Source of the DNA: Eledone cirrhosa
Taxonomy: Eukaryota
Direction: 5' to 3'
Assembly: GCA_964016885.1 (NCBI GenBank)
Contig: OZ024748.1
Location: 59,334,001 to 59,398,000 of the forward strand
Length of the DNA stretch: 64,000 nt
A program made the position numbers and the translations under genes. Positions 2,654-58,304 of this stretch are shown in pieces. Below the pieces are notes generated by a model. It was not told the origin of the DNA. It made no database searches and worked only from the letters and a program-made list of their open reading frames with translations. The first letter of the stretch is position 1; every line of letters begins with the position of its first letter.

Positions 2654-3035
2654 TATTATAGATAAGGAGGTATCAGTGATTCATCAAAACCGAGTTTATT
2701 AATATATTACATATGATTCTCCGACGATCAGCTCAAGGTAGGATCTATAACAGATCGAACCTGACTCTGCATTCGCAAGGTGCTCAGATATGTTTTGCGC
2801 TTTCAAAGCATTTCATCCGCAAAACATATCTGAGGACCTTGCGAATGCAGAGTCAGGTTCGATCTGTTATAGATCCTACCTTGAGCTGATCGTCGGAGAA
2901 TCATATGTAATATATTAATAAACTCTGTTTTGATGCATCACTGATTCCTCCTTATCTATAATAATATACTCTGCTCTGCGTGAGCATCGAGTGCTCAAAC
3001 GGCATACCACCTATGGACGCATTGATTGCAGCCAT

Positions 3036-3043
<8 letters not shown>
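2654..3043 (+). mobile_element. Fold-back Penelope-like pLTR remnant between (TA)n tracts
   Basis: 146-bp inverted arms 2654-2799/2818-2963 plus 80-bp tail; degenerate hammerhead CUGAGGA..GAAU-C-AUAU-GUA at 2830-2909. Confidence 0.65.
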
Positions 3044-3087
<44 letters not shown>

Positions 3088-3169
3088 AGCATAAGTTTGG
3101 TAAAATATCCAAGGATAAGAACAATCAGCCCATAGGACGAGTTAAGTACTAGCCATCTTTCTTTATATA

Positions 3170-3218
3170 ACAGGCTGAATGAGTGGGGTGTATAACATAA
3201 CGAAACTTAAGTACCTGT
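3170..3218 (+). ncRNA. Type I hammerhead ribozyme-like motif (Penelope-type)
   Basis: ACAGG-CUGAAUGA-stemII(G..C)-GAAA-C-UUAA-GUA-CCUGU; stem I ACAGG/CCUGU; palindromic stem III ACUUAAGU; one extra A in the core. Confidence 0.65.
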
Positions 3219-3325
3219 ATATGTCACTGTTGTAACTAATTATATATTACCGACTCTACTACCCTAAGTATCGAGTACTCTGGTGTGTTATGGTCAACCT
3301 GGTTTCTTACCACACTTCCTTTGTT

Positions 3326-3375
<50 letters not shown>

Positions 3376-6300
3376 GAGATTACAGTTTAACAGACATTTA
3401 TTTGCATATGCAAATAAATGTCTGTTAATTTGTAATTTTCCTCTGTGGAATATTTTGATACCAAATGGATGTCAATATAAACTCTTGGAACTGTAAATAC
3501 TAAATATTTGAATCCCAAATCCACATTGAGTGCTGAACAATGTAACACAAGTATTAATAAGCAGACTATATAAGACCAGTCAAACTGTCATATATCTTCC
3601 TAGGTACTCAAAGTTTGTCGATGCTAACTGACACTATCACTTCATCAGATGTATGTATGTAAGATTAGGAGATACCAGTTCAGCTAAGTACTCGATACTT
3701 GGAAAAGCAGAGCATACGTATGGTGAAACGTTAGTGCCTGAAAACTGTGCTGGCGTTGTTTCAACTCTTTTGTACTCAGTTTAAGAGACCCACAGACTTC
3801 GGAGGGGTAATATTTTATGAGGGTAGGAGGCTTTCTTTGGATACTGTACTGTAAATATTTACACTAACATCTGTAGTAAAGATATCAAGGAGAAACATTA
3901 ACATCCCTCTTAAATCCCTAGGCTAAAGTTTTCCATAGGTGGACTACTTGTCAAAACCACTGAACAGGTTTACACGCTTGCCACTTCCAAAAAACGAGGG
4001 GGTGAGTATCAACGTGGTTATTGGACGTGCTAGAAATAGCAGCCACATTTCTGTGAAATCATATCCTGTCGACATTGATTTTTTTAAGACCCCATTGTAT
4101 AGTGTAGCCAGAATAACACCAAGCCAAGAAAAAACAGATTACGTGGCCCTGGATGGAATACCTTTGATTATAGGTCTGCTCGATCAGACCTGACTTCTGG
4201 CTATATAACAAGTGTTAACAGCTACGTAATTAACTAAAAACAAAAATAATAACGAAGGTAGACTGTCTTTCTAGCAGATGTTGAAGCCATACAACTGTGT
4301 ACTAATACAAGTATTTCTTTTTAAGAAACATAAAATATTAACGTGTTTATAATACTTTAAAATCTAAACTCGACAAATAAATCTCCCGACACTCGAAGAA
4401 ATCATAAAATTGAAAAATAGTGCAAGACGTTTCATTTGTGACGGCGGCACGTGGCCTATTGGGCAGTGTTAGACACATAATCAGAAGATTGTGGGTTCGA
4501 TTCCTTGGCTGGGCGGTGCGATGTGTTCTGGAGAAAAATACTTTATTTCACGTTGCTCCTTCTACCAGGAATTGCAACCAACAGATACAATCAGCAATGG
4601 AAAGACAAATGGAAACATAGTTTCCTTGGTCCTATCTGACAATCGGCTGCTTTCATATATAAATTTAAATTATCATGAAACTAAGAAATACTATTTATAT
4701 AGTTCAAATTAGTTTAATATAAAATATAAATTCTTTCTATAAGGAACAGAGGAAGTGAAGTATTGAGATAAGTGAAGGCAAAAATGTTAGTGAGAAAAAA
4801 CAGAAACAAGTCTATATTTGAAAAAGAAAAGAAAAAACGATTTTGAAATGTGAAGCACGCGAAAGATAAGTTATCTAAGGGAGGTTACTCTATAAGCATA
4901 ATTTGAGCAATTAAGGGGAGATCACTCTAAACAGCAAGTGATGAATCCAACCAACAACAAAAAAAATCGCGAAAATAAATATCAAAAGAAATTCATTGAT
5001 AAAACAAAAGTGTTAACAAACATTTGCAAAAAAAAAAAAAAAATCCAAAATTCGACAGAATATATATTTGTTTAAAAATGCGGAGGGTTTGAACAGAGAT
5101 CAATAAATATTTTACAAGGGTGTGAGGAAAGACTTTTGATATACAATATAACGTGAAAAGAATAACAGAATAAAGGAAAAAAATCATAATCAATCAACCA
5201 ACGCCTTGTTTAATTATCGGCAAAATTTACTTCATCAAAAGACACAAAAAAAATATTTTTTGTCTCAAGACACGATTTCAGATCAATTCTTTTGATAAAC
5301 CTATTGTATATTAATATCTGAAGAAAGTTATTTATTTCAGAAATTAACGAATATTTATAATTAGTGTTTGGGGTAAATTATTTCGTGATAGGGAATAGTT
5401 TGTTTTATTGTCTTGTTTTGTTTTTACGACACATACACATATAATATAATATAATGTACAGGAATGTAAGGTTTTTAAATGTCCCACATTGTTAAAAAAT
5501 ATATAGTTAAAAGAAGTTAAAAATGCATTTGGAATCTTTAAGGTTTATTTGCAATAATGTAGAAGTTATTTAGAATTAACTTTCTTAAAGACTCTAATTG
5601 CATTTTCAACTTTTTCATGTGTGTGAGGTGGAACTCCACTCCAGAGTAACAAGACTCGTTATTTAGCCTTAATAATAATGTTATATATATATATATATAT
5701 ATCCCATGAAAGTACAATAGTTTACTTAGCTGGATAAATATTGGGGAAAATAGTATTAGGATGTTTGACCAGAGAAATACTTGCAATAGGAACCCACGAA
5801 CTAGGACAGTGCACCAATTATCCAAACCCCTCCTACATATGATGACACAGATGAACAAATTATTACTATTATTATTATCATTTAAAACCCAAGAGAAGGT
5901 AAAGAGGATTCAGAAAGTATAATTAACCTCACCCTATATTGAAGTGATTTTCCTATTGGCTTTTCCAAGCAAGCAAAAACCTATGTTTAACGTGTGAGCT
6001 GAGATATATGAATATTTCCAGAAACACCACCAGTCAAGATAGATCAAGCTTAGTTAAGATATATATATATATATATATATTAGTTGGTACTGTAAATATA
6101 TTGAAAATCGAACAATAACAATGATAAAATTAAGAGAGAATTACAATAAATGTTTTAAATAATGATTTATCAAGGTTATTTAGATTTACTCAGATTTTGA
6201 TATTGTGGCTAATGTTCTATCTACTCAAATAAATCAATTTAGCAATGCAATTCTGAAAATAGTAAATGTGCATGTCCTTCCAACCCATGCTATGAATAAA

Positions 6301-6461
6301 CAATGAAGAAAAAATAAAGATTAATATAATCATAAGATATAAACTAAAACACAACAGGATTTTTGTTAGTCTTTGTCGATTTTTAATATAAAATGTTTTC
6401 TGAACAGTTTAGAGTGGAATGTTAGAAATTTTATTGATTTCCTTATATTCGGGATGGGGAT

Positions 6462-6495
<34 letters not shown>

Positions 6496-7828: not shown

Positions 7829-7867
<39 letters not shown>

Positions 7868-8548: not shown

Positions 8549-10317
8549 TTAAACACTTTTGAAACCAAACTGCCTGAAACTGCCCTAGGTTCTATAATAA
8601 AAAGCTGTTTATTTTGAAGTGTATGTAGTTATTTATCTATCTATCTACAACCGTTCCCTTATAATTTTATCTAAGAACTTTTGTTAAGTTATGCTCCAAA
8701 TACTAACTTAATGAGAAAATTAACTAAATCCTTCAAATTTTGGATTGTTTTCAAAATACATATAGGGCAAAGGATGACAAATAAAACACATCGTTTGTTT
8801 TTGCTTTGAACTCTCTGTTTCACATGAAAAGAGGGTTTTAGCCTTGAAATATAGTGGGTAAAACATTACTTTGTTTTGATTATTTGTCATCCTTTTCCCT
8901 TTATGTATTTCTCCCACATTGTACCAGTTTTTTGAAACTCATCAATCTTTTATTGTATATATATTTCTTCTTCCTTCTTTTTATCAAAAATAAATCCTAA
9001 GTTTAATTCCAATCTGAAGTGAAACCCTGCAACAAAGAGTTCTGTCCACACCAGACCTCTCTTCATCAGGACAAAATAATGTATTCCACTTTACAAACTT
9101 TGTATTCAAAATTAGTTTCTTACTGAGCTGTATCACAGAATGACATCCACTACTTGTACATCTAAGTCAACACATTCTTAATAAATTAGTTGAGATTCAA
9201 AGAAAGTATTCCATCTGTACTCTGAGCCTTCTCATTGTACAAGTAACCACAAAGTTTTCTATGCAGCAAAAAAAAAAGAAAACAAAAATGTTTAATAAAA
9301 AAAAAAAGGACCTCGTCATAAGGTCAAACCCAGGAAATTATGTTTCCCTTGTTCTTTTTCCTATTTCTAATACTATCTGCTGGTTACAGATCCTGGCAGA
9401 GCTTCATGGGTTTTCCACTAACAGGAGGTCATATTTGAACTCAGAATGAACAAGACCCGAAGAGATACTGTAAAATAAAACCCATCCATCTCTTAAATAA
9501 TTCCAACAATGCATTGCCCCATGACTGTCTAAAGTCTTATCAGGCTGGTGTTTATCCCGGTTTCCAAGTGTCAAGCGACTGAGAGAATAAAACTTCCCCT
9601 AGACAGGATGTCAGTCCATTGCAGAGTTAAACCCCCAGCTACTGCTGGTACTCATTTACAGCTGAGTATACTGGAGCAATGTGAAATGAACTGTTCTGCT
9701 CAAGAACACAACACACACACAGAAACCCAGTCCAGGAATCGAACTTACAATATGATTGTAAGTCCAACACCCTTACTACTAGGCCATGCACCTCCACACC
9801 CTTATGACTGGTACTTTACTTTATTACCCTCGAAAGGATAAAAAGTAAAGTTAACCTTGGTGGGATTTGAACACAGAGTAGAGAGAACTAAACCAAACAC
9901 CAAGCCAACTCACTACCTGTAAGACAGGATCAGAGTGAAATAGCTCGCTGAAGATATGTTCTTTCAAGACTATAACAAGTACTGTATCATGTCTTGCTTT
10001 TTTCATTCCCCTATCAGATTGGTACACTGAGAGAATATATGGGATTAGATCACCCGCAGTAAAAAAAAAAGGAAAAAAAAAACAAGTCCAACGGTGAATT
10101 TGAACTCACAACCTATGAGCATGCCTCCATGTCTATTTGTTAATTCATCCACTTGGATATTCTACAGCTAGGCATCTCTATTACATCTAGAACTATCTAA
10201 TATCTATATACAGACTAATTGTAACAAAATCACAGTGACTTCAACAGGACGGAAGAGTGTTAATCTAATATTCTTAGGCTACAACAAAACATACTATATC
10301 CATATACACATACATAC

Positions 10318-12529: not shown

Positions 12530-14099
12530 CAACAACAATAATAATGATAATAATAATAATGGGCTCCTGATTTAGGTACAAGGCCAACAAATTTTGGGGT
12601 GAGGAGCAAGACAATTAAATCGATCGCAGTACATTACTGGTACTTTATTTTATCGACCTCGTAAGGATGACAGGTAAAGTTAACCAGATCTCTGACATTG
12701 GCACAGAGCTATATAGTAATAGTGAAGAGATAGAAGAGGAGGGAGGGAGAGTTCAGCTAATTGAATCAATCTCAGTAAATACTACTAGTACTCTTTACAA
12801 TCAACACCAATACACAACTGGTACTACATTTTATTGAAACCCCCTTTCCTCCCCCAATTCCCGGTAGATGTGAAATAAAATTGACCTCGGCAGGATTTGA
12901 ACTCCGAATGTTCAGTGAGATAAAACAAATACCACAATATATTTAGTCCCATAAAATATTGTTTCTGCCCTTCCATGACCCCTAATGATGAGGATTTCTA
13001 CTTTAGACTGAAGGTCAGTAAATTAAACAGAATGGGAAAGAAGGAAGTCAATTAAATCAACCCCACTATAAGACTGGTACTTTATTTTATCAACTCCAGA
13101 AAGATGAAAGGCAAAGTTGACCTGGGCAGAATCTGAACTCAGAAATGCAATGAACCAAAACAAATACTGAAGCATAAATAATCCAATCTCCTAATGAGTC
13201 TACCAATTAATTAAAATATAGAATTGAAACTTGTTAATAAAATGATTCAATGTATCGCCTTTGGTTTCTTTCACTTGAATTAAAATTATTATGCACTGTA
13301 TTTTTCCCATAAGCAATTAATACATTGTTGAGCTTTCTCACATTTGATAAAGAACAAGTGTTATACCCACTTCTATTCATCAACTATATATATGTATGTG
13401 TGTATGGATGAAATGTTACTAGGTGCTCCATACTTAAAGAAAGAAGAGTGTAGATATATGATGGGGTTTGAGCTTAACTGTCGGGCTTCCACCCTATATA
13501 TATATATACATCATATATATATAAAATATATATATATATACACACATACATACATACATACATTGGGAGGGTCATGTTCTCAATAAAAACATATGCACCT
13601 GTTGGATTTCACTTCAGTTTATTATAATTTCCCAGTCGATTAGTTTAATAACCAAATATCTGTGTGTGTGTGTGTGTGTATATATAAATATATATAATAG
13701 GGTTTACATTTTTGTTAGAATAGTTTATATGAAGCCTATCATGTCCCTCACAAGACTAAGCCCTCCACGCCATAATAGATAACTAAACAATATTAGTGGC
13801 AAGAAGGGGTGTCCTACCCTAGAACATTGCCTCAAAAAGGGCCCTAGGTTGAATATGATAGCTATCGTAGGACCCATAAGACTAACCCTTGCTTTAGTAG
13901 GATAAACGACTACTGTTGCAGTTGTTACGTTATGTTACAAAGAACAAAAAGAAAATAGATTTGCTGTGCCAATGAAGGTGAGAGGCAGCTTTGACCAAAA
14001 ATCAAAAATATATCAACGACCAAAGACAGAAAGAAGGAGGTGGGGAGTGAATTACAAGAAAAAGAAATACATAGAAGGAATAATTAATAATGTTTTCGG

Positions 14100-14270
14100 A
14101 TTTAGGCACAAGGCCAACAATATGGAGGGGAGGAGAATTCGATTAAATCGACCCCAGTGTATTACTGGTACTTTATTTTATCGACCCTGTATGGGTTAAA
14201 GACAAAGCTAACCTCAGCAGGATTTGATCTCAGAACGTAAAGTGCCATAATTATATGCCACAAAGCATGT
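14100..14270 (-). mobile_element. tRNA-derived SINE, same family
   Basis: aggcacaaggcc..gaccccagtgtattactggtactttattttatcgacc..gatttgatctcagaacgtaaag. Confidence 0.8.
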
Positions 14271-16368
14271 TGTCCGATGCTCTACAGATCCTGCCAATTC
14301 ACCGCCCTTGAAGGAATAATTGATTATAATTTGGGTTTGTTTTGTTTTGTTTTTCTTGAAAATATTTTTTAAAAATTTTTATTTTATTTTCAAAAATTAC
14401 AACAAAGTACTAATAAACACTATAAATTATTTCTTCAGATTTAACAAGAACAAATTCTTCAGGTAAATGAGATCTTTCTGGTTATTTAACTCTTAACATC
14501 ATGTAATGATTTTAGCAGAAAAAAATATCTACAAACATGTATGTTAATCTAAACGTTTATACTATATTTACTAGTGGACAGATTGGTTTTGGAGAAAAAA
14601 ATATTTGTAGTATTAGTATAAAAAAAGACTTTCATGGTGCTGTTTTTTGTACTTTTTTCAAGAATGTCTTGCTAATGTGGTTTCATGTGGGACAGGATGT
14701 TAAGAGTTAAGGAATATACCAAACAAACCAAAATAACAATACTTTGGAACTTGTTCTACAAAGAAAAACCCCCACCCTCACCTTGTGATAATATAACAGG
14801 GTTTCTGTTTTTTGTATTATTTTGTTTGTTTTTAAGGGACTTTTACTGTGTTTTTTTTAAAACCTTTTGCTCAGTATTTCAGGAGGGAGGGGTAGAGTGA
14901 GGGTAGAGGAGAACAATTGTGGTGGAGGTGGTGGTGGTGGTAGTAGTAGTAGAAATAATAGTAATAGTAGTAGTGGTAGTAGTGATATGAGAGGTGTGAG
15001 GGGGAGGGACATTTATGGTAGTGGTAGTAGTAATAGTAATAATAATAGTAGTAGTAGTAGTAGTAGTAGAGACAGACAGACAGACAGAGAGAGAGGAGGA
15101 GGGATGGAAAATTAAATAACTTTTTTTATTGCCCTCTCCCCCTCCACTGAAATGAAAAGTAGAATTAAAATAATATTTTGCTTTAAAATAATTTAGAAAA
15201 AAAAAAAAAAATTCAATTAAAAACGGAACAATATTTCTTTGTAATTAATGTCAAATATATATACTTTTTTTTATCTTAGGCATAATTAATTGGCTTCTTA
15301 AAAGTTGCCATTAAAGATGAGGTCTTTTATTAATTCTTTAAACCTTCCTTCTTGAAAACAGTCGATATTAAGTTTGACCAATTTTTAAAAGCTAGTGATT
15401 ATATTTTTTTTTTCCTTTCTTATTTATATTTATATATTTATATATTTATATATATATATTTGTTTTTTGTTTGTTTGTTTTTTGTTTTGTTTTTCTTTCT
15501 TTTTAAAACTTTCAGATAGTTTCAACTGCACCTACAATTTACGAAGATGCGTAAATTCAGCATCATCAGCAGATAAAGATGACACTGCACATTTCTGCAT
15601 TGGAGGGGAGGGGGAAAAAAAACTCGACATTCTTTACCCATTCATATCTTGGCAAGATTATTTCATTTTTCTTCTTTTTTTTCTCTTAAATCTCTCTTTT
15701 AAGTATTTACCTGTCTATCCAACCCTCAAATCATCCAGCCAACAATCCATCTGACCATCTATAAATCCATCGATCCAATCAGACATCCAGCCAACCAACC
15801 CTACCATCGATCAGTCGGTCGGTTGGTCAGTCTGTCTGTTCGTTTGTCTAGCCAGCCAGCCAGCCAACCATACCATCTGTCAGTCAGTCGGTTGGTCAAT
15901 TGGTCAGTCGGTCTGTTCGTTTGTCTATCCAGCCATCCAGCCAACCAAACAACTAGCCAGTCAACCAACCATACCATCGGTCGGTTGGTCAATTGGTCAG
16001 TTCGTTTGTCTATCCATCCAGCCAACCATCCCATCGGATGGTCGGTTGATTGGTCAGTTGGTAAGTCAGTCTGTTCGTTAGTCTATCCAGTTAGCCAACC
16101 ATCGCGTCGGTCAATTGGTCAGTTGGCCTGTTTGCTTGTCTATCCATCAATCCAATCAGCCAGCCGTCCAGCCAGCCAGCCAACCAACGAACCATCCCAT
16201 TAGTTGGTCAGTCGGTGAGTCGGTCTGTTTGTTTGTCCATTCGTCCCGGTCACATTCCCATCTCTCGCCGCCATCAATCTCTATGCGTGTCTGTGATGTG
16301 TCTGCTGTTGAACCCGTGAAGCATCAGATGCAGTGAACTCAAGTGGAATCTGCAGTCTTGTCCCGCTG

Positions 16369-16712: not shown

Positions 16713-19509
16713 CTGGTCAATGGAGAAAAAAAAAAATAATAATAATTGTTTCTACTTTAGGCACAAAGCCAGCAATTTGGGGAGAGGGAAAAGTCAATTA
16801 AATCAACCCCAGTGCATTACTGGTACTTTATTTATCGACCCCGTAAGGATGAAAGGCAAAGCCAACCTTGGCGGGATTTGAACTCAGAACATAAAAGGCT
16901 GTAACTCTATGATGCAAAGCATATTGTCAGACGCCCAACCGATACTGCCAATCCAGTGCCCTAAACAATAATATCAACGGTCCCATACAGGGAGGATTTC
17001 CAATTTAGGCACAAGGCCAGCAATGTGATGAGGGAAGAGGGGAGAAAGTTGATGATATCAACCTCAAGTATTTGACTTTTGTTTGTTCTTTTATGGACCT
17101 TGGAAGGGTGAAAGGCAAAGTTGAAACATATTGAGTTTGAATATAAAGTTTTTATATAAAATTATGATGGAAGGTTTTCTGATAAATTATGCAAACATTT
17201 TGAAAAGGATGGTTTAAGATCCATGATTCTATAATTCAAAACTCCTTGTTTTCAAATATTTATATTCATCTAAAAACCTTCCATCATAATTCTATGTAAG
17301 AACCTTTCTTAACTTATGCTCCAAACTCCAGTCTTATAATGAGAAAGTCTGTTATATTACAAAATCCTTCTAAATTCTTGATTATTTTGAAAATGATTTG
17401 AAAACCATATGCAGTATCTTTCATTAGAAATGTGGTAACGAAAGAGGTTGATAATGAGAAAGTTAGTTAATTTAAATTTTCTTTTTTTTTTTCTTAATTA
17501 TTTTCAAAACTATGGACAGTGTCTTTCATTATAAATATGGTAACGAAATGGGTTAATAATGAGAAAATTAGTTAATTTACAATTTGTTTTTTTAATTCTT
17601 AATTATTTTCAAAACTATAGAGTGTTTTTCATTAGAAATATAGTAACGAAATGGGTTAATAATTAAAAAAATTAGTTAATTGCAACATTTTTTTTTTCAA
17701 ATACTTAATTATTTTCAAAATTAGTTGAAAACTATAGGCAGTGTCTTTCATTAAAAATATGGTAATGAAAGAGTTTAACCCTTTAGCATTTACATTACTC
17801 TATATATACTATTATATTTTTGTGGGAAAGGCTTTGTCTCACATAATATCGAATCTATGAGATTTTGCTACTATTCATTTTTAGAACAATACCCTAACGT
17901 CAGTATGAGCAGCCAGTTATGGTTGGTTTGAACAGAAAGAGGTAAGAGAATTATGGCTGGATACAGCCAGTTTAAATGCTAAAGGGTTAAAAAAAGAAAC
18001 CAGATGTGGACTTACCTGCCTGTATGGAGAGTTGCCCCATAGATTTCTGTTGAAGTGTGATAGGACAGTCCTTGTGAGCGAGTAACAATGATTTTAACTG
18101 AGCCACTTCAGTACGTAAAAGATTTACTTCACTCTGGGAAAATTGGTCAATAAAGAAGAGATAGATAAGTTTCACAGAAAGAAAACACAAACATCGAAGG
18201 TCAGATCTCATTAAGTGAACACTTAACATGTTAGAAATAGCAGCCACAATACCTCCCTCGTTTTTTACTGTTTAGTCACAGAGAGAAGAACTGTGCTTAT
18301 GACATGACCCTTTTAAGGGTCTTTAAGATTGATGAGGGGGATGGAAGGTGGTACCTTCACATTAGGAATAAGCATGCAGTAAACTGACACACACATGAAG
18401 ACACACACACACATCGAGAGATAGAGTTGATGAGCTTCTTCACAGATGCCATCTACCAAATTACTGACAAGTTAGCCATGAAGCTATAGTAAAAGATACT
18501 TGCTCAAGGTTCCATACAGTTGAAGTGGGACCTGAAATGATGTGGTTGTGAAGTGGAGTTCATAACCACACAACTTAGCAGTTCAACAAAAAGAGATCGA
18601 TAAAGTAAGGACCAGACTTGAAAAAATAAGTACTGGAATCGATATGGTCTACTAAATCAAGGCAATGCCCCAGCATGGTCCTAGTCTGATGACTGAAAAG
18701 AGTAAAAGAATAAAAGAAAGGATTGGAGTTCTCCTCAATAAAGGTACATAACTCTGTTCCAGTTTGATATTGAAATATAACAGCTTTTATATCGTACTTG
18801 TTGGTTAACCACAAACCACTCCTGGTGAAGTTCTACTTGTTGGTTAGCAACCACAAGTCAGTCCCGGTGAAGCTCTACATGCTGATAAGCCACTAGCCAC
18901 TCCTGGTCAAGCTCTACTTGTTGATAAGGCACTAGCCAGTCTTACTCAATCTGGACTATGGTCAAAGTCATTCCAGCTGTCACCTTGCTATCTTTCTTTC
19001 AACCATAATGTATCCAAGACTATAACATTGGACGTGTTCTTGGGGTTTTTTAACCCTTTCGATAGCAAACTACTTGAAAAACCACGCTTGTTTTCTTATG
19101 ATACAATTTATTTATAACCCTTTTGATAGTAAACACCCCAAACCCCGAACCTGTTTCTATGATACAAGGTCAATTATTTTTTAACTATTTACATATCAAA
19201 CTACCTGAACCCCTAAACCCTGTTTCTATGGTAGAAGGTAAATTATTTTGAAGTGTTTATGGTTATGGTTACACACCTGTAATCTAGAGTTGGTATTCTG
19301 CAATTCTTCTGCTTTTTTCTCTAAGTCAGTAATCCACTGCTTCCTCTTCTGCCGGCACCTGGCTGCAGCAGCCCTGTTAACAGATAGATAGACAGGTGAA
19401 AGAGAGGGGGAAGAGAAAGAGGGAGAGGTGATAGGGAGAGATAAACAAACAGGTGAGAGATAGGAGAGAGCAACAGTCATTGAATATGAGATACAACAAC
19501 AGTTATTAA

Positions 19510-31060: not shown

Positions 31061-31107
<47 letters not shown>

Positions 31108-33432: not shown

Positions 33433-33469
<37 letters not shown>

Positions 33470-34215
33470 ATATAAGATCAAAAGATGGTTAAAAGATTTC
33501 CAAGTATTCTATTATGCGCATTTCAAAAACAAATATAATCATGGGATGATATCTGCATTCTCATCAGATAAAATAGGGATACATATGAAGCTTAAAAAAC
33601 ACTTGTGAATAGTGAAGTTTTAAATCAACATATATATATATATTGAAATGCGCATAATAAAATACTTGGAACTCTTTTAACCATCTTTTGGTCTTATATT
33701 ATTTATACTCCAGTCCTACAAACTGTAGAGTACTACTTATCCGATATTTGCATTGCTTTATTGTGCTACAATAAAACTCACCTCCTACATTATATATATA
33801 TATATATAGATAGATAGATAGAAACACACACATGCATATATGCACATAGCTATACTGTGCACACACACAAACATATGTATATGTGTATAAATACATTCAC
33901 ACAAATATATACAAACTGCTAAACAAACATTTTCTAACTCTGTGCGTGTTTGTATGTAGGATGTATGTATTTGTGTGTGTGAGTGTGTGAGTGTGTGTGT
34001 ATGTATGCATGTATGATGTACATTTGTATGTATGTCTATGTTTGATGTATGTATACATGATGTATATATGAATGTATGTATATATCTATGATGTATATAT
34101 GAATGAATGAATGTATGTATGTCTGATGTATAACTGTATGATGTATATATGTGATGTATATATATATATATATGTGTGTGTGTGTGATGTATATATGTGT
34201 GTGTGTGTGATGTAC

Positions 34216-41945: not shown

Positions 41946-44900
41946 AAGTCCACACTGTAAAGTGGTAGTTCTGGTGCCACAACAAAGAGCATAGTCCACC
42001 TTGTAAAGTGGTAGTTCTGGTGCCACAACAAAGAGCATAGTCCACACTGTAAGGTGGTAACTCTGGTACCACAACAAAGAGCATAGTCCACACTGTAAAG
42101 TGGTAGTTCTGGTGCCACAACAAAGAGCATAGTCCACACTGTAAGGTGGTAGTTCTGGTGCCACAACAAAGAGCATAGTCCACACTGTAAAGTGGTAGTT
42201 CTGGTGCCACAACAAAGAGCATAGTCCACACTGTAAAGTGGTAGTTCTGGTGCCACAACAAAGAGCATAGTCCATCCTGTAAAGTGGTAGTTCTGGTGCC
42301 ACAACAAAGAGCATAGTCCACACTGTAAGGTGGTAGTTCTGGTGCCACAACAAAGAGCATAGTCCATCCTGTAAAGTGGTAGTTCTGGTGCCACAACAAA
42401 GAGCATAGTCCACACTGTAAGGTGGTAACTCTGGTACCACAACAAAGAGCATAGACCACACTGTAAAGTGGTAGTTCTGGTGCCACAACAAAGAGCATAG
42501 TCCACACTGTAAAGTGGTAGTTCTGGTGCTACAACAAAGAGAATAGTCCACACTGTAAGGTGGTAGTTCTGGTGCTACAACAAAGAGCATAGTCCACACT
42601 GCAAAGTGGTAGTTCTGGTGCTACAACAAAGAGCATAGTCCACCCTGTAAGGTGGTAGTTCTGGTGCCACAACAAAGAGCATAGTCCACCTTGTAAGGTG
42701 GTAGTTCTGGTGCCACAACAAAGAGCATAGTCCACACTGTAAAGTGGTAGTTCTGGTGCCACAACAAAGAGCATAGTCCACCCTGTAAGGTGGTAGTTCT
42801 GGTGCTACAACAAAGAGCATAGTCCACCTTGTAAGGTGGTAGTTCTGGTGCCACAACAAAGAGCATAGTCCACACTGTAAGGTGGTAGTTCTGGTACCAC
42901 AACAAAGAGCATAGTCCACACTGTAAGGTGGTAGTTCTGGTACCACAACAAAGAGCATAGTCCACACTGTAAGGTGGTAGTTCTGGTGCCACCAGAAAGA
43001 GCATAGTCCACACTGTAAGGTGGTAGTTCTGGTGCCACAACAAAGAGCATAGTCCACACTGTAAGGTGGTAGTTCTGGTGCCACAACAAAGAGCATAGTC
43101 CACACTGTAAGGTGGTAGTTCTGGTGCCACAACAAAGAGCATAGTCCACACTGTAAAGTGGTAGTTCTGGTGCCACAACAAAGAGCATAGTCCACCCTGT
43201 AAGGTGGTAGTTCTGGTGCTACAACAAAGAGTATAGTCCACCTTGTAAGGTGGTAGTTCTGGTGCCACAACAAAGAGCATAGTCCACACTGTAAGGTGGT
43301 AGTTCTGGTACCACAACAAAGAGCATAGTCCACACTGTAAGGTGGTAGTTCTGGTACCACAACAAAGAGCATAGTCCACACTGTAAGGTGGTAGTTCTGG
43401 TGCCACCAGAAAGAGCATAGTCCACACTGTAAGGTGGTAGTTCTGGTGCCACAACAAAGAGCATAGTCCACACTGTAAAGTGGTAGTTCTGGTGCCACAA
43501 CAAAGAGCATAGTCCACCCTGTAAGGTGGTAGTTCTGGTGCCACAACAAAGAGCATAGTCCACACTGTAAGGTGGTAGTTCTGGTGCCACAACAAAGAGC
43601 ATAGTCCACACTGTAAGGTGGTAGTTCTGGTGCCACAACAAAGAGCATAGTCCACACTGTAAAGTGGTAGTTCTGGTGCCACAACAAAGAGCATAGTCCA
43701 CCTTGTAAAGTGGTAGTTCTGGTGCCACAACAAAGAGCATAGTCCACACTGTAAGGTGGTAACTCTGGTACCACAACAAAGAGCATAGTCCACACTGTAA
43801 AGTGGTAGTTCTGGTGCCACAACAAAGAGCATAGTCCACACTGTAAGGTGGTAGTTCTGGTGCCACAACAAAGAGCATAGTCCACACTGTAAAGTGGTAG
43901 TTCTGGTGCCACAACAAAGAGCATAGTCCACACTGTAAAGTGGTAGTTCTGGTGCCACAACAAAGAGCATAGTCCACACTGTAAAGTGGTAGTTCTGGTG
44001 CCACAACAAAGAGCATAGTCCACACTGTAAAGTCGTAGTTCTGGTGCCACAAGAAAGAGCATAGTCCACACTGTAAAGTGGTAGTTCTGGTGCCACAACA
44101 AAGAGCATAGTTCACACTGTAAGGTGGTAGTTCTGGTGCCACAACAAAGAGCATAGTCCACCTTGTAAGGTGGTAGTTCTGGTACCACAACAAAGAGCAT
44201 AGTCCACCCTGTAAAGTGGTAGTTCTGGTGCCACAACAAAGAGCATAGTCCACACTGTAAATTGGTAGTTCTGGTACCACAACAAAGAGCAGAGTCCACA
44301 CTGTAAAGTGGTAGTTCTGGTGCCACAACAAAGAGCATAGTCCACACTGTAAGGTGGTAGTTCTGGTACCATAACAAAGAGCATAGTCCACACTGTAAAG
44401 TGGTAGTTCTGGTACCACAAGAAAGAGCATAGTCCACACTGTAAAGTCGTAGTTCTGGTGCCACAAGAAAGAGCATAGTCCACACTGTAAAGTGGTAGTT
44501 CTGGTGCCACAACAAAGAGCATAGTCCACACTGTAAGGTGGTAGTTCTGGTGCCACAACAAAGAGCATAGTCCACCTTGTAAGGTGGTAGTTCTGGTACT
44601 ACAACAAAGAGCATAGTCCACCCTGTAAGCTAATAGTGCTGGTACCATGATAAAAATCACCCAGTCAACCCTGTAATATGGTAATGGTGATGTCACAATA
44701 AAATCACCCAGTCCACCCTGTAATGAGGTAGTACTGGTACCATGATAAAAATCACCCAGTCAACCCTGTAATATGGTAATGGTGATGTCACAATAAAATC
44801 ACCCAGTCCACCCTGTAATGCTGTAATACTGGTGCCACAATAAAACACCCAGTCCTTCCTATAATGAGGTAATACTGGTTCCACAATAAAAAAAAAACAC

Positions 44901-45496: not shown

Positions 45497-45498
<2 letters not shown>

Positions 45499-45759
45499 GG
45501 AGGTGAGTTTTATTGTAGTACAATAAAGCAATGCAGATATCGGATAAGAAGCACTCTACAGTTTGTGGGACTGGAGTATGCATAATATAAGATCAAAAGA
45601 TGGTTAAAGGAGTTCAATATATTTTATTATGCGCATTTCAGAAACAAACATCATCAATTAAGATTTTTTATAAAAAATCTTAATTGATGATGTTTGTTTC
45701 TGAAATGCGCATAATAAAATATATTGAACTCCTTTAACCATCTTTTGATCTTATATTAT
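45497..45759 (-). mobile_element. Fold-back element with a perfect 178-bp spacerless palindrome
   Basis: 45582-45759 is self-complementary about 45670/45671; tail 45497-45581; (TA)n on both sides. Confidence 0.8.
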
Positions 45760-47343: not shown

Positions 47344-47974
47344 TAAAATAATTAATTAATTTACATATGTTTCATTCAAATTCAAAAAGAGGTGATTTTG
47401 TAATACTATAATGACTGGAAATTTACAAATTGAATTTAACCCTGAACTGTCTTTTGCCAATCTTGATGCGGATAAAATTATATTACAGCTTTAAATATCT
47501 TTCTAGGTGCAAATCCCACGGTCATTCGTAACCAAAAGGAGTCTTTACCCTCTCTTTTGTTTTACCTATGCCAGCATGGAAAAACAAAACACAAACATAA
47601 AAACTATGATGACTTGTAAAAATAAAATATAAAAAATATAAAAAATCTTAGAAATAAAAAGATAAAAAGAAAAAGATCAGAATTCATAGTTGAGCTTACT
47701 AATTATTGATTTATTGATTAGAAAATTGGAGTCTCTAGCTCAATAGTTTCTGAGATATCAGACACATACAACAATCAATCAACCAACCAAGGAAACAAGC
47801 AAAGAAACCAAAATAGTGGCACCTAATCTTGGTGATGGTGATGTGGGATTATATTGTGGTAGATGAGAGGTGGGTAAGAGCTGATGGTGGGTGGGTGACA
47901 GCTGACGGTGGGGAGAGTATGTTGTAGTAGAAGAGGAGTAGGTAAAAATTGATGGTGCAAACAATAATGGTTTC

Positions 47975-49265
47975 TGATTTAGACACAAAGCCAAACAATT
48001 TTGGGAGAGGTCAAAGTTGATTAAAATGGCCACAGTGCATGACTGGTACTTTATTTTATCGACCCAGAAAGGATGAAAGGCAAAGTTAAGCACGGCAGGA
48101 TTTGAACTCAGAACGTAGGCTGCACTTTAATAATTGTTTCTACTTTAGGCACAAGGCCAGGCTGCCCTTTAATAATGATTTCTAGTAGAGGCACAAGGCC
48201 AATAATTTGGGGGGATGGGAAAGTTGATTAAATCAACCCCAGTACATTACTGGTACTTTATTTTATTGACCCTGTAAGGATGAAAGACAAAGTTAACCTC
48301 AGCAGGATTTGAACTCAGATCATACAGAGGCGTAACTCTATGCTGCAAAGCATTGTGTCCGACCCTCTACCGATACTGCCAATCCACTACCCTTTAATAA
48401 TAACAATGGTTTCTAATTTAGGCACAAGGCCATCAATTTGGTAGGGAATTGCAGTGTTGAATAGGTTCTATATTTCATTGACCCTGGAAAGATGACAGAC
48501 AAATAACAATAGATCTTTTTAACATTGGCACAAAGCCAGTAATTTAGGGGGAAGAGGAAAGTTGATTATATTGATCCCAGTATGTTACTGGTACTTTATT
48601 TTATCACCCCCTGAAAGGATGAATGGCAAAGTTGGTCTCAGCAGGTAGTGGACCAGAACAGATACTACAAAGCATTTTGTCCAACGCTTTAATGATTCAG
48701 CCAATCCACTACCCTTTAATGATAATAATGATGATAATTTTTTTTTTGTAAGGTTCCTCTAGCAACCAGTTGCTAGATGAAGCATGTTAATTGGCCTCAG
48801 ATCAGTCCCTGATCTCAGATGCTCAATATATCAGGTAGGGTTCTGGCTAGAAATGGTAGCAATTTGGGTACTGCCTATGAAGTCAGGGATACCAAGGCTT
48901 TTGATGAAAGATGTAAGGTGTTTAGGGACCATGATAATAACAACGGTTTCTGATTTAGGAACAAGGCCAATAATTTTGGGGGAGCAGGAGACACAATTAT
49001 ATCGACCCTAGTACTTGACTAGTTCCTTTTTTTTACTGACCCTGGAGGGGGACAAAAGGTAAATACTAACTAATAAATAATTGATTGTACTTTTTGGCAC
49101 AAGGCCAGCAATTAACCAGTGCATTACTGGTACTTTATTTTATCGACCCCCGTAAGGATGAAAGGCAAAGTTAACCTCGGCGGGATTTGAACTCAGAATG
49201 GCAAGGGCCATAACTCTATACTGCAAAGCATGGTGTCCGACCCTCTACCGATATTGCCAATCCAT
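47975..49265 (-). mobile_element. Tandem cluster of about 6 full or partial SINE copies
   Basis: Repeated ggcacaaggcc..ctggtactttattttatcgaccc..ggatttgaactcag. Confidence 0.8.
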
Positions 49266-51273
49266 TGCAACATTCTGTACCAAAACAGATATTTTGTTAT
49301 TTTGTTGCTGTTGTTTTGTTATTGTTTCGCCTTCACCTTGAACGTCTACACCAGCAGCCAATGTAAGGTGTTACTGCCATCCTACTACCACCATCACTAT
49401 TATAAAGGAAATATTTATTGAACAAAATCTTGAACCTAATCAGCTAAATCAATCAGCTGTTTCTGTGGAGCTTTCCTGAGTAACTAGTTAATCAAACATT
49501 TACCTGGCTGATTGGAGAATAAACACCACTACCAAAGATAATGCTGTTTATTCTTCATGCAATCTTGGCTATTTTTTGTTGTTGTTGTTGTTGTTGTTGT
49601 TTATATTTCAATCAATTAGGTATGGTTTTTGATAGATTTATCACCTGCATAAACTCCAGGTAACAGTGTGATAAACCTGTCACCTGGATAAAGTCCACGG
49701 TAACAGCTGACTGATTCAACCGAAATGTATTATTATATTCTACCATTTTTTCCAGACCTTAATGAGATGTATATGTTTAGCCCTATCATTAATATATTTC
49801 ATATAAAATACATTGCCTATGATTATCAAATCATTTTGAAAATAATCTGAAATTAAACATATATTTATTGATACTTCTAATAAAATTAGTGCTTAATCCA
49901 TCAGCATTTAAATCGGCCGTATTCAGCCAGAATTCTCTCACCTTTTTCTGTTCAAACCGGCTGTAACTGGCCACTCATACCAACATTAAGGTATTGTTCT
50001 CAAATAAATAACAAAATCTCATAGATTCGATATTATGCGTGATCATTTTGTGAGGTAAAGACTTTACTGTGAAAATACACTAATATATATAGAGGGTTAA
50101 ATATTAAAATCATTCTGAACAGCAAATTTAATCAACATAGACATTCGAACAATACAATAGGAACCTTAAAAATAAACCTTAAAATGTCCACATATAAATG
50201 CTTCTCAACTGGTAAACCATACAGATCATATACAGAGCTTCCACTACAGTATTGGGATCTGGAATTTTAAGGAATTTAGTAATATAATTAACTTTCTCAT
50301 TATAAAGCTGGTCTTTGGAACATAGCATAAGATTTCTTACATAAAATTATACTGAAATGTTTTCAAATAAATATAAATATTTCATCCCTTTTCTTGCTAT
50401 ATCTCTAATGAAACACATTACTTATGGTTTTCAAATAATTTTGAAAATAATCAAGAATTTGGAGGAATGAAGTAATATAACTAACTTTCTCAATATAAAG
50501 CTAGTGTTTGGAGCATAACTTAAGATTTCTTACTCTCAAGTCTCGAATAATCATCATCCCCCATCCCTTGCTTATTAAGTTTTCAGATTTTTACTACCAG
50601 CCCTGCTCTTATTCCAACCCCTCCACTTATTTAATTTTGCTGATCTATCTTTGGTGACTTTTTATTTTAAATGGTAGCATTTCTGCAACAATTAATTTTC
50701 TTTATACATTAAAAAACATTATACAAGACATTATACAAGACAAAAAAAAATACATTACTTGAAATCCCATACTTTATAAAATAAATAGGATCAGTTGGGG
50801 TTCCAACTAATTCTGGTTTTTAAAACACATCAATGGAGACAATCTGGAAAAATTACTGATTGTTTCAACCCCACCCCTGCCATCTTATTCCTCCACCACC
50901 ACCCCCTATTATTTGGGACTTGAGAGTAGATAAAATGATGAAATGTGTTCAAATATATATAAACACTTTACCCCTTACGTTACCATATTTCTAATGAAAG
51001 ACATTGTCTATGGTTTTCAAATCATTTTGAAACTAATCAAGAATTCAGAGGAATTTAGTAATATAAATAACTTTCTTATCTTTGCCTTCAAAATTTCTAA
51101 CCAAATTTATCATCCTTCCTTCTTATCACCTCCACCGACCCCTCTGTTACCATATTCCTTCTCCTCCATAACAGCATCTATATATACATATATATATATC
51201 TTTACAAAACATATTGCTATATAGTTTCAGTGTCCTACACACACATACATGTGTGTGTGTGTGTATGGAAAGA

Positions 51274-51455
51274 GATTCAAGACCCCCCCCCCCCGACGGC
51301 TGAGCTACGGCCGTTTCGACAGCTAGGTCCAAACTAGCTGTCGAAACGGCCAGAGCTCAGCCGTCGGGGGTCTTGAATCACTTCATACTACCCCAAGTAT
51401 CGAGTACTCTGGTGGGTTATGGTCCACCTGGTATTTTACCACATGCTATCTGATT
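51274..51455 (+). mobile_element. Fold-back element with the 3' half of a hammerhead
   Basis: Arms 51274-51326/51334-51379; GAAAC-GGCC-GUA on the minus strand of the left arm; tail then (TA)n. Confidence 0.68.
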
Positions 51456-51487
51456 ATATATATATATATGAAAAAATGGGGAGAAGA

Positions 51488-51543
<56 letters not shown>

Positions 51544-51802: not shown

Positions 51803-51833
<31 letters not shown>

Positions 51834-54146: not shown

Positions 54147-54363
54147 CAGTGGTCTCCAAACCTTTTTTATACCAAGGACCATGCAAATATATATATATAT
54201 AACTTGGCATTAGGAAGAGCATTCAGCCATAGAAAACCAGCCAGAAACTTTCCTATATGAGCAAGACACAGTCGCCTGACCCAAATTGCCTCTAAATGGG
54301 ACAAACCTGTCTAACCCATGCTAGCGTGGAAGATAGACATTAATCGACGACGATGATGATGAT

Positions 54364-54398
<35 letters not shown>

Positions 54399-54965
54399 AT
54401 TATGCTGGTACCACAAAACATCCAGCCCACACTGTAAAGTGATTGTGTTGGTGTCATGACAAAAAGCACACAGCCCACACTCTAAAGTGGACATGTAAAA
54501 GACACGGCAAAAAACACCCAGCAAACACTGTCAATGTGGTTGGCATTAAGAAGGACATCCAGCCATAGAAAACCAGCCAGAAATACTCTTATATGAACGA
54601 GACATGGTCACCCACCCCAACTTGCCACTAAATGGGACAAATCCGTCTAACCCTTGCTAGCGTGGAAGATAAACGTTAATCGATGATGATGGACTGGCTT
54701 TATGCCGGACAATCTTTCCACAAACTAGTAGCTGCAAATAAAGCTAGACATAAAATATACATTAATTATAAAATGTACTTAAAGTTATGGTAGATAGTAT
54801 TGAGTAGACAAATATTGAATATTTCAACAAATCTTTTTAAATTAAAGTCCAATATTCAATTTATCTATTATATGATTTTAAACAAATTAAATATTTCTTT
54901 GCAGCCTGGTAGCAAATGATCCACAGACCTGTACTGGTTCGCAGTCCAGTGGTTGGGGATCTCTG
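54147..54965. mobile_element. hAT MITE with nested SINE 3' fragments
   Basis: Perfect 8-bp TSD gtttagat on both sides; TIRs cagtggtctccaaac/gttggggatctctg. Confidence 0.82.
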
Positions 54966-55390
54966 GTTTAGATGGTGTATACAAGCCAACCTCCCATTTT
55001 GACATCAATTTTTGGGGTCACATATTCCTCAGCTTATGTTCAAGTATATATGGCATGAATAATTTCTCTGTATTTCTAATTATCTATATATCTATTTTAT
55101 ACTATGCTATCATTATCATCATCATCGTCATCATTCTTACGTCCACGTTTCCATGCTAACATGGGTTCGGCGGGATGATTTGAACTGAAACAATGCTCTG
55201 CAGCCAAAGGCCCTTCATGGCACAAAGCCTTTTAGTCACCTCTTATGACATGAAGCGCAGGGATTTGGTGGACTTATTCTAATCACCAGGATACATATGG
55301 TCAATAAGTATAAATACCGCTTTGAATAAATTTTTAAATTTAGGTACAAATGGCTCTAAAATACTTTTATTTGTTCTAGATCAGGTAGCA

Positions 55391-56507
55391 GTGGGCCACA
55401 TAGGATGTGGCTCATCATAAGGTGGGCCACATAGGATGTGGCTCACAATTAGGTGGGCCACATAAAATGTGGCTCATCATAAGGTGGGCCACATAGGATG
55501 TGGCTCACAATTAGGTGGGCCACATAAAATGTGGCTCATCATAAAGTGGGCCACATAGGATGTGGCTCACAATTAGGTGGGCCACATAGGATGTGACTCA
55601 TCATAAGGTGAGCCACATAGGATGTGACTCATCATAAGGTGAGCCACATAGGATGTGACTCATCATAAGGCAAGCCACATAGGATGTGACTCATCATAAG
55701 GTGAGCCACATAGGATGTGACTCATCATAAGGCAAGCCACATAGGATGTGACTCATCATAAGGTGATCCGCAGGGAATGTGACTCATCATAAGGTGAGCC
55801 ACATAGGATGTGACTCATCATAAGGTGATCCGCAGGGAATGTGACTCATCATAAGGTGAGCCGCAGGGAATGTGACTCATCATAAGGTGAGCCACATAGG
55901 ATGTGACTCATCATAAGGTGATCCGCAGGGAATGTGACTCATCATAAGGTGAGCCGCAGGGGATGTGGCTCATCATAAGGTGAGCCGCAGGGAATGTGAC
56001 TCATCATAAGGTGAGCCGCAGGGAATGTGACTCATCATAAGGTGAGCCGCAGGGAATGTGACTCATCATAAGGTGAGCCGCAGGGAATGTGACTCATCAT
56101 AAGGTGAGCCACATAGGATGTGACTCATCATAAGGTGATCCGCAGGGAATGTGACTCATCATAAGGTGAGCCGCAGGGGATGTGGCTCATCATAAGGTGA
56201 GCCGCAGGGAATGTGACTCATCATAAGGTGATCCGCAGGGAATGTGACTCATCATAAGGTGAGCCGCAGGGGATGTGGCTCATCATAAGGTGAGCCGCAG
56301 GGGATGTGGCTCATCATAAGGTGAGCCGCAGGGGATGTGGCTCATCATAAGGTGAGCCGCAGGGGAAGTGGCTCATCATAAGGTGAGCCGCAGGGAATGT
56401 GGCTCATCATAAGGTGAGCCGCAGGGGATGTGGCTCATCATAAGGTGAGCCGCAGGGGATGTGGCTCATCATAAGGTGAGCCGCAGGGGATGTGGCTCAT
56501 CATAAGG
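55391..56507. repeat. 31-bp internally palindromic minisatellite, about 36 copies, containing 20 TGACTCA sites
   Basis: Unit aggtgagcc(a/g)ca(t/g)(a/g)g(g/a)atgtg(a/g)ctcatcata. Confidence 0.97.
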
Positions 56508-56816
56508 CAGGCTGCACTACTAAAAATTTCAAGGCAATTTTGAAATTAGGTGTGCCACTCAGAAAACCAAATGGGCCACATACAGCTCGCGGGCCGCAGT
56601 TTGCCCATGACTGATCTAAAGTATACCAGGTGCAATCAAAGATGTTCTGCCATTTAGTTTTTTGTAGACACAGTATATCTAAGACTATATTATCTAATGT
56701 GAACTTCTTAAAAAAAAAAAAAATAGTAAGGTCCAATGAGCGAGATTTGGCAGCTACTTTTAACAGGCTGAGCAATGATATAGAGGCTCTTATCATTGGC
56801 TTGATAATGATAATGG

Positions 56817-56857
<41 letters not shown>

Positions 56858-57980
56858 TGGTGAATTAGATGATGATGATGATATTGTGGTGATGGAGAAA
56901 ATAATAGTGTGATGATGATGATGATGATGATATATATGGTGAAATGAGATGGTGGTGATGATAGTGTGGTGATGGAGAAGATAATAGTGTGATGAGGAGA
57001 AGGAGGAGGATGACGATGATGAGAAAAATGATGATGATCATCATGATCATGATGAGGAGGAAAAAGAAGATGATGATATTGTGGTGATAGAGAAGATAAT
57101 AATATGAAGATGATGGTGATAAGGATGATGTTGATGATGATGATGATGATGATGATGTTGATAGTGTAGTGATATTGTGACAACAGTGATACTGAAGAAA
57201 CACTTTTGAAATTAATTTGCTTTTTTCTTCCTTACAGAAACACAATATATGGTAATATAATCTTTTGGTATTATATAAATCAAATCAAAAGTTGGCACTT
57301 AGCAGTTACCAATATAATAAATATTAGCAACTGTGCACATGGAAAAGCAGACATAAACGACAAACAAATGCAATCATCTCTTCTCCTCATCAGCCACCCT
57401 CTGCAAATGCAATTTTGTGAGTTAAAGTGAGATTGTATCATTATAGCCAGGTTGTACAGTGCCTTTAAATATTTAGGGGGGAGGGGGGCAACATAGTTAC
57501 CAAAGAGAAAATAAGAAGTAAGTATAAGTGAATACAAATGAGTATTTCTACTTAGACAACACTGAAAATAGGGTAAATCACCACCAACACCACCACCACC
57601 AAGTGGTGCCAAACTGTATCAGCCATTGCCTTTCCCTTAGACAACATCGGTGATGTGGAAAGAAGAGACTGGTATGCTTGGGTAACTACTGGTCTTCCAC
57701 AAGACATCCCTGCCCGGATTTGTACCTCGGAGGTGAACTTTCTAGGTGCAAATCCCATGATCATTCGTGACTGAAGGGGTTTTTTACATTTATCCTTTAC
57801 CCTTTATATATATATATATATATTTACATATAGTTCACCATACCGAGAACAAATGTTTCACCTTATGCAAATCTTCATATATATATATCATCATCATTCG
57901 TCGACTACTGTCGAGATGATGGATCTCACTCTCATGCCCCAGAATTCCCTGTCCCCAGGTCCTGTCTACTGGATATATAT

Positions 57981-58304
57981 ATATTGAAAGAGTGAAGAAT
58001 AACATGGTCAACGGTACAAAAAAGGGTTTTATTTACAGTATTAACAATTGTTTCACTGATTAAGTTGTCTAAAAATTGCTGAACACTTGAAGTTGTGTCA
58101 CTCAATTTTAAATATGTTAGCTTACCCAGATCATCAGAAAGTCCTTCCTGATGATCTGGGTAAGCTAACGTATTTAAAATTGAGTGGCACAGCTTCAAGT
58201 GTTCAGCAATTTTTAGACAACTTAATCAGTGAAACAATTGTTAATACTGTAAATAAAACCCTTTTTTGTACCGTTGACCATGTTATTCTTCACTCTTTCA
58301 ATAT
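57981..58304. mobile_element. Fold-back element with 157-bp arms and hammerhead core
   Basis: Arms 57981-58137/58148-58304; CUGAUGA (58148) .. GAAA-C-AAUU-GUU (58231-58242); explains the mirror ORFs 57932-58198(-) and 58087-58320(+). Confidence 0.75.

Follow-up and report, generated by a model that had tools for sequence, protein, structure and literature searches.

What produces the palindromic inserts that sit in TA microsatellites of the octopod Eledone cirrhosa? The question is raised by a 64,000-nt stretch of contig OZ024748.1 (assembly GCA_964016885.1, positions 59,334,001 to 59,398,000 of the forward strand; hereafter the window), in which a reading made from the sequence alone had placed ten fold-back elements with type I hammerhead ribozyme cores and had proposed that they were mobilised by Penelope-like retroelements. 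With a probability of roughly 0.7, these inserts are 5'-truncated 3' ends of Penelope-like elements, probably of the Hydra clade, that were reverse-transcribed into (TA)n, each fold-back being built anew from two copies of the RNA end. The Penelope-like origin as such is very probable, and the sequence features make membership of the Hydra clade probable. The architecture has already been published, and the window families are probably new octopod Hydra-clade families; new here is a conserved, repeated hairpin located a few bases from each of two fixed ends. The inserts and their main parts are given below, where A, B and C denote families of related copies and R1 a covariance model built from 19 metagenome hairpins and no window sequence.

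2654-3043, plus strand: E1, inverted arm at 2654-2799 and forward arm at 2818-2963 around an 18-nt loop, tail of 80 nt, (TA)n on both sides
From 2830: damaged hammerhead of E1, 61-nt stem II region, A15.1 changed to U
2968-2992, plus strand: tail hairpin of E1, 4 nt past the arm end, fourth-ranked R1 match (E=1.3)
3245-3326, plus strand: B0 (family B), tail-only copy, hairpin from 3253 (R1 E=0.004)
3379-3436, unstranded: E2, bare 58-nt palindrome without tail, TA flank or hammerhead part
23580-23905, minus strand: E11, insert of about 325 nt flanked by two (TA)n runs and not folded back, missing from the earlier list
23630-23663, minus strand: complete minimal type I hammerhead of E11, the insert ending about 50 nt past the cleavage site
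23968-24225, minus strand: E3, 75-nt arms (24076-24225), tail of 108 nt with its hairpin from 24067, no part of a hammerhead seen
24256-24519, minus strand: E4, 72-nt arms around a 36-nt loop, tail of 84 nt with its hairpin from 24332 (sixth-ranked R1 match, E=3.7)
31100-31453, plus strand: E5 (family C), arms of 117 nt around a 32-nt loop, tail of 88 nt failing the hairpin descriptor
31291-31341: hammerhead fold of E5, U4 changed to A
31480-31658, minus strand: E6 (family B), 29-nt arms, 36-nt loop with stem II and GAAA, 85-nt tail
32927-33030, plus strand: E5b (family C), 61-nt inverted arm joined to the tail via short G microhomology, no forward arm
33469-33790, plus strand: E7 (family A), a long inverted arm with a short forward arm from GAAA, 90-nt tail, hairpin from 33707 (R1 E=0.087)
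33505-33575, minus strand: complete type I hammerhead in the inverted arm of E7, stem I of 8 bp, stem II 11/12 bp, AUA site
45497-45759, minus strand: E8 (family A), two perfectly matched arms of 89 nt, each with a GAAA half, tail of 85 nt with its hairpin from 45577
51274-51455, plus strand: E9 (family B), centre of the fold at the stem II hairpin of the hammerhead, TA run at one end only
57981-58470, plus strand: E10, 157-nt arms starting CUGAUGA, 76-nt stem II region, 166-nt tail, TA on both sides

All ten sites of the sequence-only reading fold back where it had put them, nine being recovered by an ungapped scan and E7 by blastn and gapped alignment (33469-33526 against 33643-33700). The common layout that it had described, namely (TA)n, inverted arm, forward arm, one-sided tail and (TA)n, is present at nine of the ten; E2 lacks it and, on present evidence, does not belong with the other elements. 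The arms lie at the positions originally given, whereas the tails of E3 (23968-24075), E4 (about 24256-24339), E6 (31480-31564, in part) and E10 (58305-58470) extend beyond them. Arms measure 29-157 nt and are 92-100% identical, except in E9 where a 7-nt poly-C gap lowers the likeness to 83%; E2, E3 and E8 fold without a loop. In 17 of 20 cases an outer end is no more than 6 nt from a (TA)≥3 run, against 7.9% of random positions, a count that is partly circular since tail ends were placed by eye at the start of the microsatellite. E3 and E4 share a single (TA)12 run (24231-24255), and their tails and inner arms (23968-24075, 24256-24339) are weakly alike by eye.

The summed arm alignments contain 788 matches, 19 transitions and 11 transversions, and these differences read as those of real, aged DNA. 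Chimeric fold-back reads from assembly or amplification, which would suit the identical arms of E8, are an exceedingly improbable source of the palindromes: nine of the ten arm pairs differ, with transitions in excess, independent loci share their boundaries, and the same layout is found in unrelated metagenome contigs. Two sequencing runs of one sample contain 0.74-0.75 of the words of 26700-33900, and since these runs may be the source of the assembly they do not provide independent support; no RNA run was listed as containing words of this segment.

The primary sequences, which had been called mostly unrelated, fall in part into three families that recur among the sites: A (E7 and E8), B (E6, E9 and the tail-only B0) and C (E5 and E5b). 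Each family is represented by two to three copies within 64 kb with fixed 3' ends. Within a family the arm end and the tail are constant while arm length and fold centre vary, as in E7 versus E8 and E6 versus E9. Relative to the core, the fold centre is situated at about -6 in E10, -21 in E1 and -63 in E5, and inside the stem II region in E6, E8 and E9. Because copies of one family differ at the fold centre, the hairpin was not copied as a unit and was made anew at each insertion; the proposal of an ORF-less population of mobilised hairpins (ORF, open reading frame) is thus not borne out. The same variation bears on miniature transposable elements with inverted repeats (MITEs) or foldback DNA transposons targeting TA, to which the long inverted arms adjoining TA runs might be ascribed. 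That origin is largely refuted and very improbable: only one of the two arms has the conserved tail on its outer side, copies of one family differ in arm length and centre, some copies consist of a tail or an arm alone, and both the hammerhead parts and the tail hairpin are stranded. The two arms are copies of one RNA end set head to head; one stops before the first hairpin of that end and the other continues through it.

Hammerhead sequences bear on the clade from which these RNA ends came. The cores reported in several arms are present as halves or damaged versions at several sites, and a complete exact-core fold is found at only one of the ten, E7, whose stem III is an 8-nt palindrome. Including E11, the motif is complete in two inserts, partial or damaged in seven others and absent from E2 and E3. 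The exact-core type I descriptor matched the window three times, where 40 shuffles averaged 0.2; the third match (26567-26676), whose stem II region is 89 nt long, was discounted as probably due to chance. The half consisting of GAAA and a palindromic stem III occurs 18 times in the window, seven of them within the hairpins, which make up 2.9% of the bases, and all seven point outward. This half is carried by three of eight families, a number reached in none of 20,000 shuffles. E10 has a GAAA half in each arm and both cores without the 5' strand of stem I, E9 a GAAA half with palindromic stem III in its inverted arm, and E4 a damaged GAAA half; the readings of E6 and E4 are damaged or partial. 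A U flanks stem II on each side in E5, E10 and E11, stem III is 8 nt long in E7, E8 and E9, and Hydra-style stem III length and flanking U occur together in E10 and E11. Among the 150 of 229 Rfam matches listed there was no hammerhead. The monomer folds are no stabler than shuffles (E7, z=-0.06; E11, z=0.07), as would be expected for motifs predicted to depend on a dimer or a protein. Hammerhead cleavage was considered as the cause of 5' truncation and rejected, the arms of E1, E5, E7, E8, E9 and E10 extending upstream of the cleavage site. Both complete hammerheads lie on the sense strand of the ATF2-like host gene described below, that of E7 in a fold-back that would tie up its 3' half and that of E11 in an intron; E11 also has a GAGCACT-like motif near its upstream end with no clear partner.

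These features match those of the Hydra clade of C-terminal-endonuclease Penelope-like elements, for which the accessible text of Craig et al. 2021 (PMC8557442) describes a bias to (TA)n, an inverted 5'-truncated copy and a tail of 30-40 bp; among its members are Hydra-1_Obim of Octopus bimaculoides and Penelope-13_HM, to which an inverted 5'-truncated copy is attached. In its File S2 hammerhead table, as far as available, most Hydra rows have U before and after stem II and a stem III of 8-10 nt, and the same portions of the paper state that microsatellite targets hide target duplications. The window inserts share with the clade the (TA)n target, the hammerhead near the 3' end, the inverted 5'-truncated copy and the one-sided tail, and differ in having no ORF and in several long stem II regions (36-76 nt). 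The Naiad clade, which has no canonical hammerhead, does not agree with the hammerhead parts of families A, B and C, E10 and E11; E2 and E3 carry none. Minimal type I hammerheads of Penelope-like elements were described by Cervera and de la Pena 2014 (PMC4209133) as having a palindromic stem III and an extra base before stem II, with opposite-strand pairs 100-700 bp apart and most motifs single and ascribed to truncated elements, traits that the window inserts share; the parts of that paper available describe no hairpin downstream, and the window motifs differ in being mostly halves or damaged. In Octopus vulgaris 31 recently active Penelope-like families are recorded in the available text of PMC13282606.

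The second clue is the tail hairpin. Tails of otherwise dissimilar families open with RCTC, followed by an inner stem-loop, two bulged bases and a closing GAGY, the hairpin beginning 4-8 nt after the arm end in all seven elements measured. The hairpin is present in six of seven family tails and on none of the seven opposite strands, and none of 20,000 shuffles gave two or more. It is damaged in E9 and has a long loop in E10, where it starts at 58309. Model R1 returned 21 matches in the window, the top four being the tails of E6 (hairpin from 31559, E=0.0008), B0, E7 and E1, with E4 sixth. B0 consists of this tail, beginning at the arm-end site after a short TA run and finishing at (GA)n. The outer pair is mostly A-U in the window and G-C in all 21 metagenome representatives. 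Descriptor matches outside the fold-backs at 3713 (minus) and 41590 (minus, between short TA runs) may be old tail-bearing fragments or chance.

The hairpin was examined outside the window with a metagenome scan that sought two hammerhead cores and GAGYACT 52-82 nt downstream, requiring neither RCTC nor stems. It gave at least 116 matches in metagenome contigs and 11 more in viral contigs. Among the matches listed, the hairpin was found in 38 of 45 with a full hammerhead and in eight of 71 others, and in none of the 11 viral ones; the eight are hammerhead copies with a stem damaged or cut off. Clustered at 75% identity, the 46 positive loci fall into 14 groups, one of which takes in 29 loci, and independent families number about a dozen. 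In 21 hand-picked representatives the second inner pair occurs as five pair types and the third as four. The pair counts of alignment A4 (100% paired, nine cells with two-sided change) are conditional on selection by the descriptor and were not used as independent proof. Fold-backs like those of the window are present in 15 of the 39 positive loci having at least 150 nt upstream, and in all 15 the inverted arm halts 3-10 nt before the hairpin, -10 being the floor of the test. The exact family A tail pattern gave no match in metagenome contigs. Another arrangement of the same two ends is seen in L094, whose inverted copy lies downstream of the tail and not upstream. A further set (L008, L012, L072, L079, L092, L111 and similar) has both cores and a good stem II, no stem I by the test and no tail hairpin, and is perhaps another Penelope-like clade.

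Some of these loci connect the hairpin to coding elements. L076 contains an ORF of 721 amino acids ending about 250 nt before the hammerhead, and by eye its protein bears RWK, DKT and CxCX5C, the marks given for Hydra-clade proteins, together with the absence of CCHH, in the accessible part of PMC8557442. Relatives of this protein were found in 17 of 126 loci and, at E≤1e-50, among no fewer than 2,841 database proteins, of which the few that bear names come from corals, a bivalve and a bryozoan; viral contigs gave none and genome contigs one. The Penelope-like origin that the sequence-only reading had proposed is thus supported by the layout of arm, tail and (TA)n, by the outward Hydra-style hammerhead parts and by a hairpin shared with loci encoding reverse transcriptase and endonuclease. 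Where the hammerhead precedes an ORF, a second like hairpin follows the first after 32-40 nt in five of 53 loci by script, and also in L021 (34 nt) and L076 (46 nt), the last two spacings being counted by eye; the start codon is 21-44 nt past the second hairpin. L076 has both read-through and terminated copies, the terminated copy ending 4 nt before hairpin 2, and in its close relative L127 the end falls at that position too, ahead of a TA run. In other terminated copies the microsatellite starts 24-57 nt after the first hairpin (22 of 46), and two large metagenome families end 32-34 nt after it. The published Hydra consensus sequences, compared by eye, contain the exact tail hairpin in three of six new ones. 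In Hydra-2_Amil and Hydra-2_Ajap the tail at the 3' end contains hairpin 1. The Hydra-1_Ajap sequence begins 2 nt ahead of hairpin 1, with both hairpins at its 5' end. Hydra-1_Crog, in which the hairpin has a mismatch, finishes with the tail and begins 6 nt ahead of a variant second hairpin. The words 'hairpin' and 'stem-loop' are absent from the main text of PMC8557442, and three window motifs are absent from its supplement. The word 'hairpin' is likewise missing from the other main texts that were checked. No account of the paired hairpin came up in literature searches, which did not extend to subscription papers or the notes in Repbase, and its absence from print is not established.

Two fixed ends bounding a tail have a biochemical counterpart. 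The purified Poseidon protein PAc from Anolis, according to the available sections of Frangieh et al. 2024 (PMC11167929), cleaves AT-rich DNA on both strands, extends both and uses two internal start sites that bound the tail; hammerhead cleavage is dispensable, the protein is a predicted dimer, and those sections give no conserved signal for the two sites. The likeness extends to the two start sites bounding the tail, the AT-rich targets and the hammerhead upstream of the starts. In contrast, PAc starts in an AC-rich stem-loop inside the ORF, and here the starts would lie before two repeated hairpins in the untranslated leader. The balance tips slightly towards the hairpins being start-site signals for reverse transcription. 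The element's protein, probably a dimer, would bind both hairpins, one subunit on each just 3' of the start site, and would nick both strands of the TA-rich target. Reverse transcription would begin about 5 nt 5' of each hairpin, a start at hairpin 1 yielding the tail-less inverted arm and a start at hairpin 2 the tailed arm. Both complementary DNA (cDNA) copies would stop early, often at the hammerhead, and would then be linked in head-to-head fashion. The ribozyme may contribute by stalling the copying, as may snap-back near the hammerhead. The partial forms are consistent with this scheme, E11 representing the short end only, B0 the tail only and E5b an inverted arm running into the tail, although the form of E5b could also be explained by later deletion.

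Snap-back could also be given a larger part. Within the same Penelope-like origin, the inverted arm would then arise by self-priming of one cDNA at stem II or at the palindromic stem III, the fixed ends would come from pairing of a TA-rich primer with AU-rich RNA, and the hairpins would serve as promoter, in DNA endonuclease recognition or in translation control. The position of the folds is in keeping with this: E9 is centred on stem II, E2, E3 and E8 have no loop, and the fold centres of 14 metagenome loci lie near the core, at +2 to -28 nt from its start, in a sample biased by the need of the pattern for an intact core. In L009, L011, L017, L018, L066, L085, L093 and others the centres cluster within about 10 nt around the 5' strand of stem I, often falling at a short AT palindrome, sometimes with small core duplications. 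Arm ends are AT-rich, self-priming has been proposed from junction palindromes in the available text of PMC3846280, and the Penelope tail of D. virilis is required for endonuclease recognition, as cited in the accessible part of PMC11167929. Self-priming alone nevertheless leaves unexplained that the second arm ends 3-10 nt short of the hairpin in 7/7 window and 15/15 metagenome fold-backs, that the inverted arms of E7, E6 and E1 hold unique upstream sequence missing from the forward arms, and that E5b has an inverted arm without a forward arm, barring a later deletion. We regard it as an unlikely account.

Slightly less unlikely, though still doubtful, is a parentage of dedicated non-coding, retrozyme-like elements that use Penelope proteins, the fold-back again forming at insertion and the parents lacking an ORF. 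No ORF trace was found in the 13 inserts, truncations accumulate near the hammerhead, and non-autonomous hammerhead-bearing derivatives of Penelope-like elements are described in the available text of 10.64898/2026.07.22.740005. Non-LTR retrozymes, as far as the portions seen of PMC7229834 and 10.64898/2026.07.22.740005 describe them, are likewise short, non-coding, provided with a type I hammerhead and linked to Penelope. They are head-to-tail tandem units, whereas the window holds single head-to-head inserts; no tandem array of hammerhead units was found in the window. The missing ORF has a further reading, since pieces shorter than the gap of about 250 nt between ORF and hammerhead in L076 would also lack an ORF if they were truncated coding elements, and the inserts are too short to reach it. 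The metagenome group with the same short fold-backs also holds ORF remnants (L040, L064). Non-coding parents are compatible with the twin-hairpin mechanism.

Several observations weigh against the preferred reading of truncated Hydra-clade ends joined at insertion. Insertion into (TA)n is common to Hydra, Naiad and Neptune and is not specific, and Neptune also bears hammerheads, while the comparison of hairpins by clade covered Hydra. Window tails of 80-166 nt exceed the published 30-40 bp. The hairpin descriptor was composed after viewing the window tails and the published Hydra ends; across the window it is loose, with 14 matches against a shuffle mean of 6.6 and maximum of 14, and the tails of E5 and E9 fail it. 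R1 missed E3, E5, E8, E9 and E10 at E≤10. Metagenome matches are not independent of one another, the 15 fold-backs coming from few families, and the window has no nucleotide similarity to the metagenome 3' segments. By eye the octopus element Hydra-1_Obim shows no complete hairpin, and likewise Hydra-1_Amil. No window element reads through to a second hairpin, and the ending of the tail at hairpin 2 was directly seen in one family only. No ORF remnant was detected in the window: tblastn with the L076 protein gave a best E of 0.43, and Pfam on 148 of 225 candidate frames gave only an exon of a bZIP gene; a motif search for remnants of Penelope proteins likewise returned nothing in the window. 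With neither an ORF remnant nor a nucleotide match, the clade placement rests on motif and architecture.

The remainder of the window is repeat-dense, AT-rich animal DNA. It includes an ATF2-like bZIP gene, whose exon peptide is 93% identical to the ATF-2-like protein of Argonauta hians, an abundant family of short interspersed repeats with nested and inverted copies (an inverted pair at 136-600), which we take to be probably an octopod short interspersed nuclear element (SINE), and young minisatellites.

16561-37018, minus strand: ATF2-like bZIP factor gene, 10 exon matches by tblastn with the Argonauta hians protein
1-640, 9804-9902, 12567-13144, 14079-14320 and 16735-17122: copies of the short interspersed repeat
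25835-26026, 26511-26670, 38135-38245, 39404-39705 and 47960-49268: further copies of this repeat
19944-21710 (81-bp units), 35646-36835 (78), 41947-44647 (46), 55403-56507 (31) and 60375-61206 (39): young minisatellite arrays

Introns of the ATF2-like gene hold E3, E4, E11, E5, E6, E5b and E7, so that seven of the 13 inserts per 64 kb are intronic in one gene. The minisatellite units are 91-98% alike, and two arrays lie inside introns of the same gene. A tRNA-like match at 37500-37573 (35.4 bits against an Rfam gathering score of 29) is possibly a SINE head, and Rfam microRNA matches fell on TA repeats and long hairpins, all far under their gathering scores.

How the inverted repeat and the tail form is named an open question in the accessible text of PMC8557442, and the twin hairpins make the origin of both directly testable. 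With slightly less than even confidence, we propose that Hydra-clade elements carry an undescribed identical pair of cis-acting hairpins, with compensatory changes between the cnidarian-type and octopod versions, and that this pair may position the subunits of a dimer and dictate arm-plus-tail insertions. If so, the length of the tail would be the distance between the hairpins, and (TA)n could receive any RNA that had been furnished with the pair. The hairpin would also be a marker with which to classify ORF-less palindromes that repeat pipelines could mistake for MITEs. Cephalopod-type animals are known for heavy RNA editing, and the density of the inserts together with arms of up to 157 bp suggests that they may be a source of long intronic double-stranded RNA.

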